DNA of 64,000 bases. It comes from Hyphomicrobium sp. (GTDB lineage Bacteria; Pseudomonadota; Alphaproteobacteria; Rhizobiales; Hyphomicrobiaceae). Each line of letters opens with the position of its first letter. The first letter of the stretch is position 1. Shown here in pieces: positions 41,299 through 45,845 of the stretch. The position numbers were made by a program, and so were the translations under genes. Location of the stretch: the NCBI GenBank assembly GCA_035517115.1, contig DATIZL010000010.1, positions 9,070 through 73,069 on the forward strand. The letters are read 5' to 3'. The notes under the pieces are model-generated. The model did not search any database. It was not told the origin of the DNA and saw nothing but the letters and a program-made list of their open reading frames with translations.

Positions 41299-43551
41299 AT
41301 GGAGAAGCAAACGCCGCGCGGCAGGCCACCGGTCCGCCTCGAGGGCAACCGCTACCCGGACGGGCGCCCGGCGGGGCCCACGCGGCCGCAGCAGCGCCCC
41401 ACGCCCGAGCCCCAGCCGAACCTGCTTCTCACTGGGCTGATCTACGGCGGCATCGGCCTGTTGGCGCTCGGCGTCGCCACTTTCACCTTCCTGATGATCT
41501 CGCCGCCGACCGATTTCATCCGCAATCAGGTCGTCGCCGAGGTGCGGGCCGAGACGGGCCGCGACTTCAAGATCGCCGGCCCTGCCTCGTTCACGTTCTT
41601 CCCATCCGTCGGCATGCGCGTGCAGGATGTGTCGCTGTCGGCGCCCCCCGAGATGGGCGGCGAGCCGCTGCTCACCGCGCAGAGCCTCGATGTCGGCGTT
41701 CACTTCTGGCCGCTCGTGCGCCGCGAGGTCGTCGTCGATCGGCTGGTGCTGCATAAGCCGGTGTTCAACCTGCGCGTCGACGCGCAGGGGCGCCGGAGCT
41801 GGGACATGGCCGGGAGCCCGGCGCCGGTCCGCTACGCAGAGGCCGCAACCACGCTCACCGACGCGCCGATCCGCGTGGCCGCCAATGAGGGTGACGCCGG
41901 CGCCCGCCGCCTCGATGTGGGCGAGCTCTCGCTCGGCGACGTGCGCATCGAGGACGGAATCCTGCGCTATAGCGACGAGCGCTCCGGCATCCAGCGCGAG
42001 GTCACCGCCATCGACGCCGACGTCGCGGCGCCTTCGCTCGCGAGCCCTGTCGACGCCAAGGGCAGCTTGCTGTCGCAGAGCGAGAAGATTGCCTTCGACG
42101 CCAAGATCACCTCGCTCGGCGATCTTGTGCAGGCGCGCCCGGCGAAGCTTGCCCTCAACGTCTCGGGGCGGCCGCTCAACGTGCACTACGACGGCACCAT
42201 CGCGCTGCAGAAGGACATCGCCGCGGAAGGCAGCCTCAACGGCGACACGGCCTCGGTGCGCACGCTTGCCGAATGGCTCGGCACGCGGCTGCCGCGCTCC
42301 TCCGGCTTCGGCGCCGCCACGCTCGCCGCCAACCTGACCGGAAGCGGGGACTCCTGGCGCTTCTCCGACACCAAGCTCACGCTGGATGGCGCCACCGCGA
42401 CCGGCACCGTTGGCCTCATCACCTCGGGCAAGCGCCCGCACGTGGTGGCCGACCTCAAGGTCACGGGCCTCAACCTCGACAGCTATTCCGCCCGCGGCGC
42501 GCAAGGCGAGCGGGCCGCTCCGGCGCCTCCGGCAGAGGCCGCGCCGCCTACGCAGGCGCCGTCCGGGCCGCGCTCCATCGACGACCTGCTCGAGCAGCCG
42601 GGGCCCAAAGTGAAGGGCTTTACGCAGCGCGAGGGGTGGAGCGGCGAGCCCTTCGATCTCTCCGGCCTCGACCTCGCCGATGCCGACGCCAAGCTCTCGA
42701 TCTCCGGGCTCACCTACGCCGGCATGCAGGTCGATTCCTCGGAGGTCTCGCTCACGCTCAAGGATCGCGTGCTCAAGACGGTGCTTCCCGACTTCCGCCT
42801 CTACAAGGGCCGCGGCAGCGGCGCCGTCACCCTCGACGGCACCGGCAAGGAGGCGCTCGTTGCCGCCGACTTCGCGCTCGCCAACATCGCCGCCCAGCCG
42901 CTGCTCAAAGACTCCGCCGGCATCGATTGGCTGTCGGGCAACTACAACGGCAACCTTTCCATCAAGGGCCACGGCGCCAGCGAGGAGGCGCTGGTGCAGT
43001 CCCTGAACGGCAAGGGCGACTTTGCCGTCAGCAACGGCGCGGTTTCAGGCTTCAACCTGGGCGGCGCCCTGCGCGAGCTGCGCGACGGCAACATCCCCGA
43101 TTTCGAGACCTCGCCATCGCAAAAGACCGACTTCACAGCGCTCACCGGAAGCTTCCTCATCACCGACGGCGTCGCCCGCAACGAGGACCTGAAGCTCTCC
43201 GGCCCGGCTGTACGCGCCACCGGCTCCGGCTCCATCGATCTGCCCGCGCGCAGCCTCGACTACACGGTGAAGCCGACGCTCGTCGCCAGCGCCGAAGGCG
43301 AGGGTGGCGCGGAGGATCTCGCCGGCATCGAGGTGCCTGTGCACATCACTGGCGCCTGGAGCGCGCCGAAGATCGAGCCCGACTTCGAAGGCGCGCTCAA
43401 CAGCGAGAAGAACCGCAACACCGTGAAGGAGATCGGCAAGAAGCTCGGTGGCAAGGACGTCGGCGAGGCGATCGACAACCTGCTCAAGAAGGGCGAGAAC
43501 GGCGAGCCGTCGAAAGCGGAAAAGTTCCTCGACAAGATATTCGGGAAGTAG
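41299..43551 (+). CDS. AsmA family protein
   Basis: N-terminal TM, ETGRDFKIAG, beta-rich body, C-terminal TDFTALTGSF.I.DGVARNEDL.L, IEVPVHITG.WSAP. Confidence 0.88.
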   Translation: MEKQTPRGRPPVRLEGNRYPDGRPAGPTRPQQRPTPEPQPNLLLTGLIYGGIGLLALGVATFTFLMISPPTDFIRNQVVAEVRAETGRDFKIAGPASFTFFPSVGMRVQDVSLSAPPEMGGEPLLTAQSLDVGVHFWPLVRREVVVDRLVLHKPVFNLRVDAQGRRSWDMAGSPAPVRYAEAATTLTDAPIRVAANEGDAGARRLDVGELSLGDVRIEDGILRYSDERSGIQREVTAIDADVAAPSLASPVDAKGSLLSQSEKIAFDAKITSLGDLVQARPAKLALNVSGRPLNVHYDGTIALQKDIAAEGSLNGDTASVRTLAEWLGTRLPRSSGFGAATLAANLTGSGDSWRFSDTKLTLDGATATGTVGLITSGKRPHVVADLKVTGLNLDSYSARGAQGERAAPAPPAEAAPPTQAPSGPRSIDDLLEQPGPKVKGFTQREGWSGEPFDLSGLDLADADAKLSISGLTYAGMQVDSSEVSLTLKDRVLKTVLPDFRLYKGRGSGAVTLDGTGKEALVAADFALANIAAQPLLKDSAGIDWLSGNYNGNLSIKGHGASEEALVQSLNGKGDFAVSNGAVSGFNLGGALRELRDGNIPDFETSPSQKTDFTALTGSFLITDGVARNEDLKLSGPAVRATGSGSIDLPARSLDYTVKPTLVASAEGEGGAEDLAGIEVPVHITGAWSAPKIEPDFEGALNSEKNRNTVKEIGKKLGGKDVGEAIDNLLKKGENGEPSKAEKFLDKIFGK

Positions 43552-43685
43552 TGGGGCACCTCGCCGCGTGACGCTCTCCACGTGCCCGCGGGCATCGGAA
43601 TTTCGGCTCTTGCGGCCGCGCTCGATTTTTGCTGCGCGCCTCGCGCTGAAAAAAAATTGCCCCGCGCGCAAATTTTTTCTTGCGT

Positions 43686-43840
43686 AGGGGGGGTAGGTGC
43701 CTCATATGACCCCTCTCCGTTCGTCCACCTGCCCTTAAGGTCGAGGTTTTCCAAAAACCCCAAAGGTAAGGAGCGGACGGGTCACCTCTATCTGCTGGTT
43801 GGGGAGGGTCATATGGCCTTTAATGACACCCTCTTCCAAT
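43686..43840 (+). promoter_or_regulatory. Structured speD leader with a 10-codon uORF (43706-43738, MTPLRSSTCP) and alternative anti-SD helices
   Basis: CATATGACCCCTCTCC (43703-43718) is complementary to GGGGAGGGTCATATG (43801-43815), which contains the SD and start codon; an inner helix and a second GGGTCA at 43779-43784 give an alternative pairing. Confidence 0.55.
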
Positions 43841-44373
43841 TGGGGATGGACTTGACTCGTTCAAGCACCGCCCAAGAGGAAGATCATCGTGTAGCTGCGC
43901 ACGTGGCGCACGAAGACAGGAAGGACTTCTTCATCGAGCGCGATGGCGTTCGGTTCGCCGGAACCCACCTGATCGTGGACCTGTTCGGCGCCCGACGGCT
44001 CGATGACCTAGAGCACATCAAGCGCACCTTGAAGCGATGCGTGGAGGTGGCAGGCGCAACGCTGCTGCACATCCATCTGCATCACTTCACGCCCAACGGG
44101 GGCGTGTCCGGTGTGGCCGTGCTCTCGGAAAGTCACATCTCCATCCATAGCTGGCCGGAAGCCGACTACGCTGCGCTCGATGTGTTCATGTGCGGCAACG
44201 CTCAGCCGCACAAGTGCATCGAGGTCTTGCGCGAGGCGTTCAGCGCGCGCGACGTGCTGGTGAAGACCCACCACCGCGGCTCCGAGCTCGACGAGCTCAA
44301 GTGGCAGGCGGCCCGCTCACGGCAGGCTCCGGTGCGCTTGAAAAGCGTTAAGAAGGCGAAGCGGGCGGCTTAG
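43813..44373 (+). CDS. speD: S-adenosylmethionine decarboxylase proenzyme
   Basis: GTHLIVDL, HHFTPNGGVSGVAVLSESHISIHSWPE (ES cleavage site), LDVFMCG; GGGAGG SD. Confidence 0.95.
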   Translation: MAFNDTLFQLGMDLTRSSTAQEEDHRVAAHVAHEDRKDFFIERDGVRFAGTHLIVDLFGARRLDDLEHIKRTLKRCVEVAGATLLHIHLHHFTPNGGVSGVAVLSESHISIHSWPEADYAALDVFMCGNAQPHKCIEVLREAFSARDVLVKTHHRGSELDELKWQAARSRQAPVRLKSVKKAKRAA

Positions 44374-44516
44374 CGCGGCCGCCCCCTTCCCCAGCCGGGT
44401 CTGGTCATGTTTCCGCCTTGTGCATGGGCGACGCAGAGGTAAATACTCATGCGTCGCCCATGGATTCGGGCGTCCGCCGGCATGCGCGCCGAGCAGCGAG
44501 CAAACGTCGAGCCAAC

Positions 44517-45845
44517 ATGATGCGCGCCGCTCTCACTGCCTTCCTTCTCGCCGTCCTCTTGTTCGCGCGGACGGCGCCTGTTGGCGCGCAGGACGCGGGT
44601 CTCGGCGGCAGCTTCCTCAACCCCTTCCCCGAGAACGACACCTACCAGGTGCAGGTGGTCGGCGACTGGCTCGCCGACGGGCTCATGGGCGGCTTGGCCG
44701 AGACCTTCGCCACCGGGCCCGGGGTCGTGATCTCCAAAAAGCGCTACGACCTGCCCGCCCTCATGCTCAACCGCACCGACGGCGACCTCAATGCGCTCGA
44801 GCAAGCCTTCGCCAACGACCCGAGCCACATAGCGATCGTCATGCTCGGCGCCCAGGACCGCTACAACGTGGGCCCGCGCGTGGCCTCCGGACAGGCCGGC
44901 AACTGGCGCAACGACTACGCCGCCCGCGTCGACCGCGCGATGAAGATCCTGCGCAAGGGCGGCCGCGCCGTCTATTGGGTCGGCCTGCCCAACATGCGCC
45001 GCTGGCAGGACAACGAGCGCGCGCAAGCCATGAACGACGTGTTCCGCGAGCGCGCCTACTTGAACGGCGTGCGCTACATCGACGCCTACGCGAGCTTCGT
45101 CGACGAGGGCGGCGGCTACAGCGACTACGGTCCCGACGTGACCGGCAAGGTGGCGCGGCTGCGCGACACCGACGGCGTCCACTTCACCGACATCGGCTAC
45201 CGCAAGCTCGCGCATTTCGTCGAGCGTGAGCTCAGGCGCGATATGGCGCAGGCGAAGGAGGAGCGCTCGGTCCCGCTCGCGGGCGATGAGGCGGAGCAGG
45301 CGCGCGTCAATCCCGACCGGGCGCGCCTCAAGGCCGAGGCCGCACCCGCCGCGCCGGGCACGCCGGGGGCGCAGAAGCAGAAGCCCAAGGAGGCGAGCCC
45401 CGCGCCGGCGCCCGACGAGGCCGGCCGCGAGCAGAAGGCCGAGACCGGCAAGGTCGACGTCAAGGTGGGGGCCCCGGGCGGCACCGAGCAGATCGTCTCG
45501 GTCGACATCGTGCGCCCGGCCATTCCCGCCTCCGTGGTCGCCCTGGTCACGCGCAAGCAGAGCCCCGACAAGGCCGCGCAGATGGGCGACATTCTGGTCG
45601 ACCAGATCCCCGGCGGACTGACGGTCATGAGCTCGATCGTGCCGCCGCGCGGGGCAGGCGCGCACCGGGGAGTATCGCCCACGCAAACGCCCTACTTCCG
45701 CGTGTTCGAGCGCGGCGATAGGCTGCCCCCCAAGCCCGGACGGGCCGATGATTTCACTTGGCCCCGCCCGCAGGCGACCGCGGAGGTGCAGCAACCGGAG
45801 CCGCCTCCGCAGCCGGTTGCGAACGACAAGACCAAGCGCCGCTAG
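44517..45845 (+). CDS. SGNH/GDSL hydrolase family exported protein (DUF459-like)
   Basis: VVGDWLADGL, IVMLGAQD, VYWVGLP, LRDTDGVHFT..GYRKLAHFVE. Confidence 0.82.
   Translation: MMRAALTAFLLAVLLFARTAPVGAQDAGLGGSFLNPFPENDTYQVQVVGDWLADGLMGGLAETFATGPGVVISKKRYDLPALMLNRTDGDLNALEQAFANDPSHIAIVMLGAQDRYNVGPRVASGQAGNWRNDYAARVDRAMKILRKGGRAVYWVGLPNMRRWQDNERAQAMNDVFRERAYLNGVRYIDAYASFVDEGGGYSDYGPDVTGKVARLRDTDGVHFTDIGYRKLAHFVERELRRDMAQAKEERSVPLAGDEAEQARVNPDRARLKAEAAPAAPGTPGAQKQKPKEASPAPAPDEAGREQKAETGKVDVKVGAPGGTEQIVSVDIVRPAIPASVVALVTRKQSPDKAAQMGDILVDQIPGGLTVMSSIVPPRGAGAHRGVSPTQTPYFRVFERGDRLPPKPGRADDFTWPRPQATAEVQQPEPPPQPVANDKTKRR

Follow-up and report, generated by a model that had tools for sequence, protein, structure and literature searches.

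A putative RNA switch formed by the leader and first codons of speD in Hyphomicrobium and its relatives

The gene speD, which encodes a pyruvoyl-dependent S-adenosylmethionine (SAM) decarboxylase (AdoMetDC), lies on the plus strand of a 64,000-nucleotide stretch of Hyphomicrobium sp. DNA (contig DATIZL010000010.1; the window, as we call the whole stretch analysed here). Comparative analysis and predicted folds suggest that the start of its mRNA, comprising the 5' leader and the first 24 codons (about 43714-43883), is probably a conserved, uncatalogued RNA switch that hides or exposes the ribosome-binding site. The speD open reading frame (ORF) at 43813-44373 has 186 amino acids and matches the Pfam family AdoMet_dc (PF02675) at residues 52-156 (E = 8.1e-35); the sequence ESHISIHSWPE is conserved in SpeD homologues, and the Glu-Ser self-cleavage motif of pyruvoyl-dependent AdoMetDC is thus present. 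The nearest SpeD relatives are Hyphomicrobiaceae proteins of 185-198 residues that align from residue 1, and a spermidine-synthase-like gene (speE) lies directly 3' of speD in 52 of 80 related genome loci, the window's own clade differing. The enzyme assignment is sound because of the Pfam match, the full-length relatives and this adjacent gene. Upstream, an AsmA-family gene (41299-43551) is followed by a 261-bp gap and then speD. It was here, at 43686-43840, that an earlier sequence-only reading placed a switchable RNA controlled by a short upstream ORF (uORF). The features of the region are listed below. OFF denotes the predicted fold in which the Shine-Dalgarno sequence (SD) is paired, ON the predicted fold in which it is free, and P1 the helix that closes the 5' domain.

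43646-43678, plus strand: A-tract, G+C palindrome and T-tract, in the gap after the AsmA-family gene, directly before the -35 element of the speD promoter
43679-43684, plus strand: -35 element CTTGCG; CTTGC is conserved and stands 17 nucleotides (nt) from NCATAT in 70 of 72 loci
43702-43707, plus strand: -10 element TCATAT; CATAT is invariant, and the box contains the ATG (43706-43708) of the proposed uORF
43714-43717, plus strand: predicted transcription start zone, 7-10 nt after the -10 box
43717-43780, plus strand: 5' domain, closed by P1, CCGUUCG (43717-43723) with CGGACGG (43774-43780)
within 43717-43780, plus strand: conserved internal loops of the 5' domain, CCACCUGCCC, AAGGU and AAAGGUAAGGAG
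43745-43759, plus strand: variable apical hairpin GGUUUU/AAAACC; length and sequence vary, and a small hairpin is predicted here in most relatives
43776-43784, plus strand: switch strand GACGGGUCA, sharing 43776-43780 with the 3' strand of P1; its OFF partner is UGACUCGUU (43853-43861)
43787-43809, plus strand: OFF helix 5' strand, UCUAUCU then CUGGUUGGGGAGGGU, including the SD GGAGG (43803-43807); invariant in 67 sequences
43813-43815, plus strand: speD start codon, in the OFF apical loop; an ATG stands 4-6 codons before CUCUUCC in all clades
43813-44373, plus strand: speD, pyruvoyl-dependent S-adenosylmethionine decarboxylase with the ESH processing motif
43828-43861, plus strand: OFF helix 3' strand, codons 6-17; anti-SD ACCCUCUUCCAAUUGG, then GGAUGGA and UGACUCGUU
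43832-43883, plus strand: ON hairpin, codons 7-24; stems UCUUCC/GGAAGA, UUGGG/CCCAA, UGG/CCG and CUUGA/UCAAG, with a GA bulge

Both RNAalifold on 67 leaders and the minimum free energy (MFE) structure of the window transcript (-62.0 kcal/mol; all fold energies given here are predictions) yielded one long OFF helix of about 31 base pairs, formed by 43776-43784 with 43853-43861, 43787-43793 with 43844-43850, 43795-43803 with 43835-43843, and 43804-43809 with 43828-43833. This helix buries the SD and leaves the AUG within an apical loop of about 18 nt. It is rich in G.U pairs, with eight of them, three consecutive at 43796-43798 with 43840-43842; on the other strand these eight would become A.C mismatches. 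The 65-nt OFF hairpin is predicted at -25.3 kcal/mol. The ON fold, consisting of P1 and the hairpin within the ORF, gave -58.7 kcal/mol when forced on the window transcript. Stem 1 of the ON hairpin pairs 43832-43837 with GGAAGA at 43878-43883, which would serve as an anti-anti-SD; in the window this hairpin fold has z = -3.5, and the 5' domain alone folds at -23.7 kcal/mol. Positions 43776-43780 are claimed by both P1 and the OFF helix. When the transcript was folded as a series of increasing length, P1 and the 5' domain formed first, the SD:anti-SD hairpin appeared once 43845 had been transcribed and coexisted with P1, and at 43862 the basal extension of the OFF helix displaced P1. Across 28 representatives (totals of -26 to -57 kcal/mol), the energy of ON minus OFF ranged from -3.0 to +5.6 kcal/mol, with a median of 1.0. 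The predicted OFF and ON folds are clearly mutually exclusive and nearly isoenergetic, and one of them sequesters the SD.

These folds support the switchable structure burying the SD and start region of speD that the sequence-only reading had proposed, and a check of the window found each string it had quoted in its place. Its inner helix, CCGTTCG-TCC (43717-43726) with GGA-G-CGGACGG (43770-43780), is real and corresponds to P1, and the small hairpin strings that it described inside this helix, CCTTAAGG (43733-43740) and GGTTTT/AAAACC (43745-43759), are present. The anti-SD that it saw in the early coding region, TGACACCCTCTTCCAA (43824-43839), is also real, but the reading had missed its partners, the SD upstream and GGAAGA downstream. 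A second GGGTCA, present at 43779-43784, had been thought to compete for a TGACCC arm; GGGUCA pairs instead with UGACUC in the coding region (43853-43858). The extent proposed for the element was too short at its 3' end, as the element runs 70 nt into the ORF, to 43883. The interval 43686-43840 itself folds no better than shuffled sequence (z = -0.83), a result that is uninformative, as promoter DNA makes up part of that interval and only half of the element lies within it.

We compared the window with 80 species-level Hyphomicrobiaceae genome loci. The leader is highly conserved from CUCCGUUCG (43715) onward, and 76 species, whose proteins are only 68-91% identical, share an invariant nucleotide sequence over codons 7-24, CUC UUC CAA UUG GGG AUG GAC UUG ACU CGU UCA AGC ACC GCC CAA RAG GAA GA. 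The codon entropy at conserved degenerate residues was 0.03 bits for codons 7-24 (n = 14) versus 1.28 bits for codons 37-160 (n = 80), and the G+C content at third codon positions was 0.61 in codons 7-24 versus 0.84 in the remainder of speD. Variation is unrestricted in codons 2-5 and in the linker that follows codon 24. The frozen sequence begins at 43828, where the OFF helix ends, and stops exactly at 43883, where the ON hairpin ends, and the variable bases of the coding block (ACU/ACC, ACC/CCC, GAG/AAG/ACG), some of them amino-acid-changing, all fall within predicted loops of the ON hairpin. Judged from these patterns, codons 7-24 are evidently under selection at the RNA level, and the invariance of the coding block is explained by a triple constraint of coding and two pairings.

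Covariation was assessed first within the family and then across clades. Within Hyphomicrobiaceae, 98.8% of the alignment cells of the OFF helix are paired, with 99.4% for the 43787-43809 strand and 99.5% for the switch strand, and P1 is paired in 98.2% of cells, its changes being wobble-compatible. The common polymorphisms of the family at 43777, 43790 and 43828, all A/G, face a U (43777 in both folds), and that at 43794 lies in a bulge. Distant relatives were obtained as 80 metagenome loci fetched around one divergent SpeD homologue. The leaders of these loci keep AUCU[GA]CUGG and an SD, their ORFs keep CUCUUCCAAYUGGGGA ... CCCA..GGAAGA, and between the coding blocks everything varies. In nearly all the 47 diverse loci folded, the MFE structure of the segment from CUCUUCC to GGAAGA is a single hairpin, with lengths of 47, 50, 53, 56, 89 and 110 nt (the anchor search clipped L115, L124 and L134 one codon position short); those insertions that were checked keep the reading frame. 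Its apical stems are unrelated yet paired, for example CUUGA/UCAAG, CCUG-GNRA-CAGG, UUCAGU/ACUGAA and CUUGG-GGCUC...GAGCC-CCAAG. Among 26 sequences, seven pairs of the ON hairpin covary, with 23 cells changed on both sides, compared with 2.7 +/- 1.1 pairs in shuffles, none of 500 reaching the observed level; the cross-clade alignments were hand-assembled from anchored segments and the sequences are related, so such shuffle counts are not probabilities. The covariation score was 0.183 versus 0.133 in shuffles (0/500), and slid controls were lower. Stem 1 changes from UU/AA to CC/GG in L115, and U41-A74 becomes C-G in L137. The OFF helix is the MFE structure of the segment from leader to anti-SD in most lineages. 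In 21 sequences across clades, 91.9% of its cells are paired (1/500 shuffles as high; slid controls 45-59%) and nine cells carry double changes (8/500), with a score of 0.152 versus 0.127 (5/500); G43801-C43837, for instance, becomes U.G in L083-87, and a G-C pair becomes A-U in L146. A translational riboswitch is marked by conserved structures that exclude each other, with the SD hidden in one of them, and the folds, the covariation and compatibility counts and the near-equal energies present this pattern here.

The position of the promoter bears on where this RNA begins. Over 72 loci, to which the promoter and uORF counts refer, the arrangement is CTTGCN-N17-NCATA[TC], with N18 in the two loci that depart from the exact spacing; the spacer sequence varies, and the 8-12 nt after CATAT are variable among relatives up to a conserved CUCC. 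Alphaproteobacterial sigma-70-type promoters have the form CTTGAC-N17-CTATAT, and the same layout is found in Rhodobacterales as CTTGNN-N17-NTANNT. Because the two hexamers are conserved at a fixed 17-nt spacing while the spacer varies, CTTGCG-N17-TCATAT upstream of speD can be assigned with confidence, on comparative grounds, as a predicted sigma-70-type promoter. The sequence-only reading had suspected a promoter next to the A/T tracts, and the comparative motif supports this. Scans of the window with an E. coli consensus promoter and for simple terminators called neither a promoter nor a terminator. Relatives share the pattern of 43646-43678, with the consensus AAATTTTTGGCCCC-GGGGGCCAATTTTTT directly 5' of CTTGC; its equivalents in L001-L079 read TTTGCCC-GCG-GGGCAAATTTTTT. 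The segment looks like an intrinsic terminator, possibly bidirectional, insulating the promoter of speD against the AsmA-family gene, and it is perhaps also an UP element.

RNA ends were taken from Logan metatranscriptome contigs of 12 runs placed on the window, which are unstranded and whose extreme ends may be eroded. Ten of 11 leader-covering contigs start at 43717 or later: one at 43717 (X26, the RNA-only contig reaching furthest upstream), five at 43728, and one each at 43729, 43730 and 43731. Relative to the -10 box these ends lie at +10 (43717) and at +21 to +24 (43728-43731), within the 5' domain. The sole contig that reads through, X25 (43603-43949), may reflect DNA carry-over. Contigs of the L074 clade start 15-20 nt after the -10 box. 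The starts at 43728-43731 recur in eight independent metatranscriptome runs from several studies, and contig X34 has an Illumina adapter directly before 43728. We infer that speD transcription starts at about 43714-43717; the contig ends would fit either a start near 43714 whose outermost 5' nucleotides were lost or a processed transcript. Processing may account for the ends at 43728-43731, for instance if the RNA were trimmed back to the foot of the small hairpin at 43727-43741; alternatively, library preparation may have caused systematic 5'-end loss. An extracytoplasmic function (ECF) or sigma-54 promoter was considered as the source of the 43728 end and rejected: CGTT at 43718-43721 fits an ECF -10 element, and there is no conserved GGAAC-like -35 element.

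Altogether, we propose that the first 170 nt or so of an mRNA starting at about 43714-43717 would act as a cis-acting, two-state translational switch. In the OFF state, leader sequence 43776-43809 with the SD would pair with codons 6-17 (43828-43861), the AUG would lie in the loop and ribosome binding would be blocked. In the ON state, the coding strand would pair instead with codons 19-24 (CCCAA..GGAAGA) to form the ORF hairpin, leaving the SD free, and the basal leader strand would be taken by P1 of the 5' domain. Basal OFF pairing would cover the 5' half of the ON apical stem, so that the ON hairpin could not nucleate. The 5' domain is the likely input, because P1 competes with the OFF helix for 43776-43780 and the OFF fold blocks ON nucleation; its stabilisation would shift the balance to ON. 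In this scheme the 5' domain would be the sensor and the rate of speD translation initiation the output, and a polyamine-pathway metabolite is the most plausible guess for the signal.

The platform recurs outside the family with other 5' domains. The largest non-Hyphomicrobiaceae group is Rhodobacterales (Roseovarius, Actibacterium, Mameliella, Rhodosalinus and others), in which a different domain, ACCGAUCCCAAC-variable hairpin-GGGGGGGCGCUAAGGGACC, follows the group's own promoter. This domain is compact and highly conserved and lies about 110 to 40 nt upstream of the speD ATG (L125, L126, L136, L140, L149, L151 and others); RNAalifold gave it CC/GG and CCC/GGG stems and a covarying hairpin, no Rfam family matches it, and it is an orphan candidate aptamer. 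A Rhodobacterales strand (e.g., CUCUGGAUU or GACUGG) lengthens the OFF helix so that it reaches the 5' half of the group's own apical stem, GGUCUGGAG, the same layout as in the window, where GACGGGUCA pairs with UGACUCGUU, from different sequences. In the clade of L074, L076 and L077 the base of P1 is kept and the interior of the 5' domain consists of plain covarying hairpins, and group C has a short leader. Conserved 5' domains thus exist but differ between Hyphomicrobiaceae and Rhodobacterales, and one clade has a plain hairpin. An SD-like YUAAGG(G)A(G/C)C (UAAGGAG at 43767-43773 in the window) stands just 5' of the switch strand in Hyphomicrobiaceae, in L090 and in the Rhodobacterales domains; no start codon follows the motif, which could be a ribosome decoy or standby site, or a further anti-SD partner. 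It is tempting to speculate that these elements form an alphaproteobacterial riboswitch-like family, in which at least two aptamer architectures (Hyphomicrobiaceae and Rhodobacterales) feed one ORF-embedded platform and sense spermidine, decarboxylated SAM (dcSAM), SAM or putrescine, or else that the G.U-rich core is itself a direct polyamine sensor; we hold this extension tentatively, as a possibility well worth pursuing.

Several observations weigh against the two-state switch. Within Hyphomicrobiaceae no compensatory double change was found, because the region is invariant. Duplex energies of cognate versus permuted SD:anti-SD combinations did not differ significantly (638/2000), a test that is uninformative because any SD pairs with CCUCUUCC; because of this result, support for the OFF fold is weaker than for the ON fold. 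The predicted equilibrium has the SD almost always paired and P1 populated at about 5%, which implies that an activating input is needed. Most contigs start at 43728, and if this were the mature end, the 5' strand of P1 would be removed; the transcription start itself rests on the promoter motif and on unstranded contig ends, and contig ends are not mapped starts. The L074/L076/L077 clade and group C keep the core without a complex 5' domain, so the sensor may lie elsewhere, and the ON hairpin, with internal loops that vary, offers no evident ligand pocket.

The last of these points would suit a ligand-free throttle, self-timed or cation-sensitive, which is the main rival to a sensing switch although we consider it rather unlikely. 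Here a ribosome would load before the anti-SD is transcribed, or while another ribosome unwinds codons 6-24, and the OFF/ON balance would come from refolding kinetics or from polyamine or Mg2+ stabilising the G.U-rich OFF helix. Such a throttle would fit a core kept from one order to the next beside 5' domains that differ or shrink to a plain hairpin, as well as the coexistence of P1 with an SD:anti-SD hairpin that forms once 43845 has been transcribed, the G.U pairs of the OFF helix with their run of three, and variable ON-hairpin loops. It leaves unexplained the strong within-order conservation of the internal loops of the 5' domain and the riboswitch-like overlap of P1 with the basal OFF strand, and selective polyamine stabilisation of the OFF helix is a conjecture.

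It is improbable, but conceivable, that a protein sets the fold by binding the leader or hairpin, as in ribosomal-protein leaders, with SpeD, SpeE or a general RNA-binding protein as candidates. The 5' domain repeats the SD-like AAGG (as AAGGU at 43737 and 43763 and within UAAGGAG), the YUAAGG(G)A(G/C)C motif is common to the Hyphomicrobiaceae, the L090 variant and the Rhodobacterales domains, and near-total invariance is typical of protein or ribosome contact sites; that invariance, however, is already accounted for by coding and two pairings, no neighbour gene beyond speE is consistently linked, and no particular protein emerged as a candidate.

Conservation might instead be driven by a function of the N-terminal peptide MAFNDTLFQLGMDLTRSSTAQ(E/K)ED, as an arrest peptide or a protein-level regulatory tail. 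SpeD homologues (50% clustering) that are only 42-55% identical overall still start MA[FY]xDxLFQLGMDLTRSS[TP]AQKE[DE], and arrest peptides occur in other polyamine genes (PMC2811004). We regard this as very unlikely, as synonymous sites are frozen and yet amino acids change at loop positions (T19P, E22K/T). More distant homologues and other clades keep only the residues encoded by paired RNA (LFQLG ... Q/H-x-E-[DE]); F8 is replaced by P, D, V or A with changes in the partner strand, which are clearly compensatory in L115 and leave mismatches in L119 and L121; and the central part of the peptide gives way to unrelated insertions whose RNA still folds into a stem.

The original proposal, in which a ribosome on the uORF at 43706-43738, or a ligand, releases a 15-bp helix between 43703-43718 and the SD/AUG region, is largely refuted. 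The short ORF from ATG 43706 to TAA 43738 (MTPLRSSTCP*) exists as a string, and CATATGACCCCTCTCC (43703-43718) and GGGGAGGGTCATATG (43801-43815) are present as described, in the window and with similar complementarity in its close relatives; the X25 contig would allow some read-through RNA carrying the arm. The ATG, however, is present in 46 of the 72 loci and absent in 26 (CATATC, CATATA, CATAC), with peptides of 10 to more than 30 amino acids in different frames and with varying stops. It lies inside the -10 box, upstream of where nearly all contigs begin, and the same is true of the CATATGACCC arm that was to have been the SD partner: the arm is the -10 box, tied to its 17-nt spacing, and the bases between that box and CUCC are variable. 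The outer helix is strong (<= -20 kcal/mol) in only 24 of the 72 Hyphomicrobiaceae loci, the window's close relatives. An RNA thermometer of the ROSE, fourU or rpoH/cspA type is scarcely credible: the SD is indeed sequestered by a helix with many G.U pairs and bulges and has coding-region partners, as do the rpoH and cspA mRNAs, but there is no ROSE or other Rfam match, the OFF hairpin, predicted at about -25 kcal/mol (full OFF fold -62), exceeds known thermometers in stability by far, and the exclusive link to speD points to metabolic control.

The surroundings of speD and its N-terminus also bear on annotation. Among the related loci compared, no neighbour other than speE is consistently linked to speD; in the window's clade a DUF459/GDSL-like protein (44418-45845 in the window) takes the place of speE downstream of speD, and a motif scan of the 64-kb window found no speE anywhere. 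The window holds no second copy of the motif and no speD paralogue. Upstream of its ATG the speD frame has no stop for 77 codons, which yields a 263-residue ORF from GTG 43582, but this extension is spurious because indels in relatives break that frame. For annotation, the 24-residue N-terminal extension and ATG 43813 are genuine and the 263-residue ORF and the uORF are not; the former could mislead gene callers. Eight SpeD homologues (P0131, P0134, P0142, P0148, P0184, P0190, P0196 and P0265) share the N-terminal MAFNDTLFQLGMDLTRSS... leader, lack the catalytic serine, with xGH for ESH, and over the rest of the sequence share only 42-56% identity with the SpeD of the window; possibly they are inactive paralogues with the same leader, which would recall the trypanosome AdoMetDC 'prozyme'. 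At 43880-43914, RNA contigs X26 and X27 show a joint that goes back 35, i.e., a tandem duplication of about 36 nt in the His/Ala-rich linker after codon 24, matching the 198-residue relatives (P0003 has EDRRVAAHVAH twice); the length of this linker is polymorphic, and the changes keep the frame. Four long-read MFD nanopore metagenome-assembled genomes (L011, L020, L021 and L056) have an extra A in GACTTGAACTCG (GACTC, 43853-43857 in the window) that frameshifts speD. Since CcrM methylates GANTC, which is the motif at this site, the insertion is probably a systematic miscall of nanopore sequencing at the methylated base and not biology.

No catalogued RNA family accounts for the element. A cmscan of window positions 43000-44500 against 4227 Rfam families (E <= 10) returned only an unrelated downstream P17 (E = 9.6), and at E <= 1 nothing was found at the speD leaders of 20 related loci. 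SAM-I and its variant, SAM-II, SAM-V, SAM/SAH, speF (RF00518) and ROSE gave no covariance-model match, in agreement with the sequence-only reading, which had recognised neither SAM-II nor speF. Our literature search found no description of an alphaproteobacterial speD/speH leader, of a proteobacterial polyamine riboswitch or of a Hyphomicrobium AdoMetDC leader, the one related system it returned being the SAM-I-variant spermidine riboswitch of Bacillota, and to our knowledge no mechanism has been described for the regulation of spermidine synthesis in Alphaproteobacteria. The speD element is a concrete candidate for such control, testable by mutation, in many soil, freshwater and marine bacteria (Hyphomicrobiaceae and Roseobacter-group Rhodobacterales), and its two orphan 5' domains are offered as candidate aptamers. 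Its cultured carriers include Hyphomicrobium sulfonivorans (L027), Hyphomicrobium sp. NDB2Meth4 (L015) and Filomicrobium insigne (L031). With frozen synonymous sites, only the paired codons kept between orders and in-frame insertions that preserve stems, it is also an unusually clear case of a protein-coding stretch set by RNA structure, and intergenic-only searches miss regulatory RNAs whose main body lies in an ORF. Should the metabolite-sensing family or the polyamine-sensing core prove true, Proteobacteria would have their first RNA-based device for polyamine feedback, and the N-terminal 24 residues of the enzyme would exist because of RNA pairing.

Among known systems, SAM-II (RF00521), SAM-V (RF01826) and SAM/SAH (RF01727) are cis-acting leaders of SAM-metabolism genes in the same taxa that mask the SD by alternative pairing, and in them, as in the speD element, the helix that closes a conserved 5' domain has a 3' strand overlapping with the switching sequence. 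The speD platform differs in lying mostly within the ORF (codons 6-24) and in being more conserved than its presumed, order-specific aptamers. The spermidine riboswitch is a SAM-I variant with an S-box fold that acts by transcription termination, with 13 representatives in Bacillota (Salvail et al., 2023, PMC10853860). Like it, the speD element is an RNA element before polyamine-biosynthesis genes, speD included, with an expected feedback on spermidine synthesis; unlike it, the element has no S-box similarity, occurs in Alphaproteobacteria and would control translation. In the rpoH and cspA thermosensor mRNAs and the internal complementary sequence of gnd, segments of the ORF pair with the SD/AUG region and set the efficiency of translation. 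The pairing of ORF to initiation region and the existence of alternative overall folds near the 5' end of the mRNA are alike, whereas the anti-anti-SD hairpin, the modular 5' domain, the extreme synonymous constraint across two orders and the single metabolic gene set the speD element apart. With SpeFL-speF, the MAGDIS uORF of AdoMetDC and ermC-type translational attenuation it shares the polyamine context and an arrangement of three segments in which the SD is freed once the middle one is covered; it differs in having no separate uORF, the 'leader peptide' being the N-terminus of the enzyme as dictated by RNA pairing. The class of mechanism is familiar, and what is unfamiliar is that anti-SD and anti-anti-SD both lie in the ORF, under extreme synonymous constraint and with exchangeable 5' domains.

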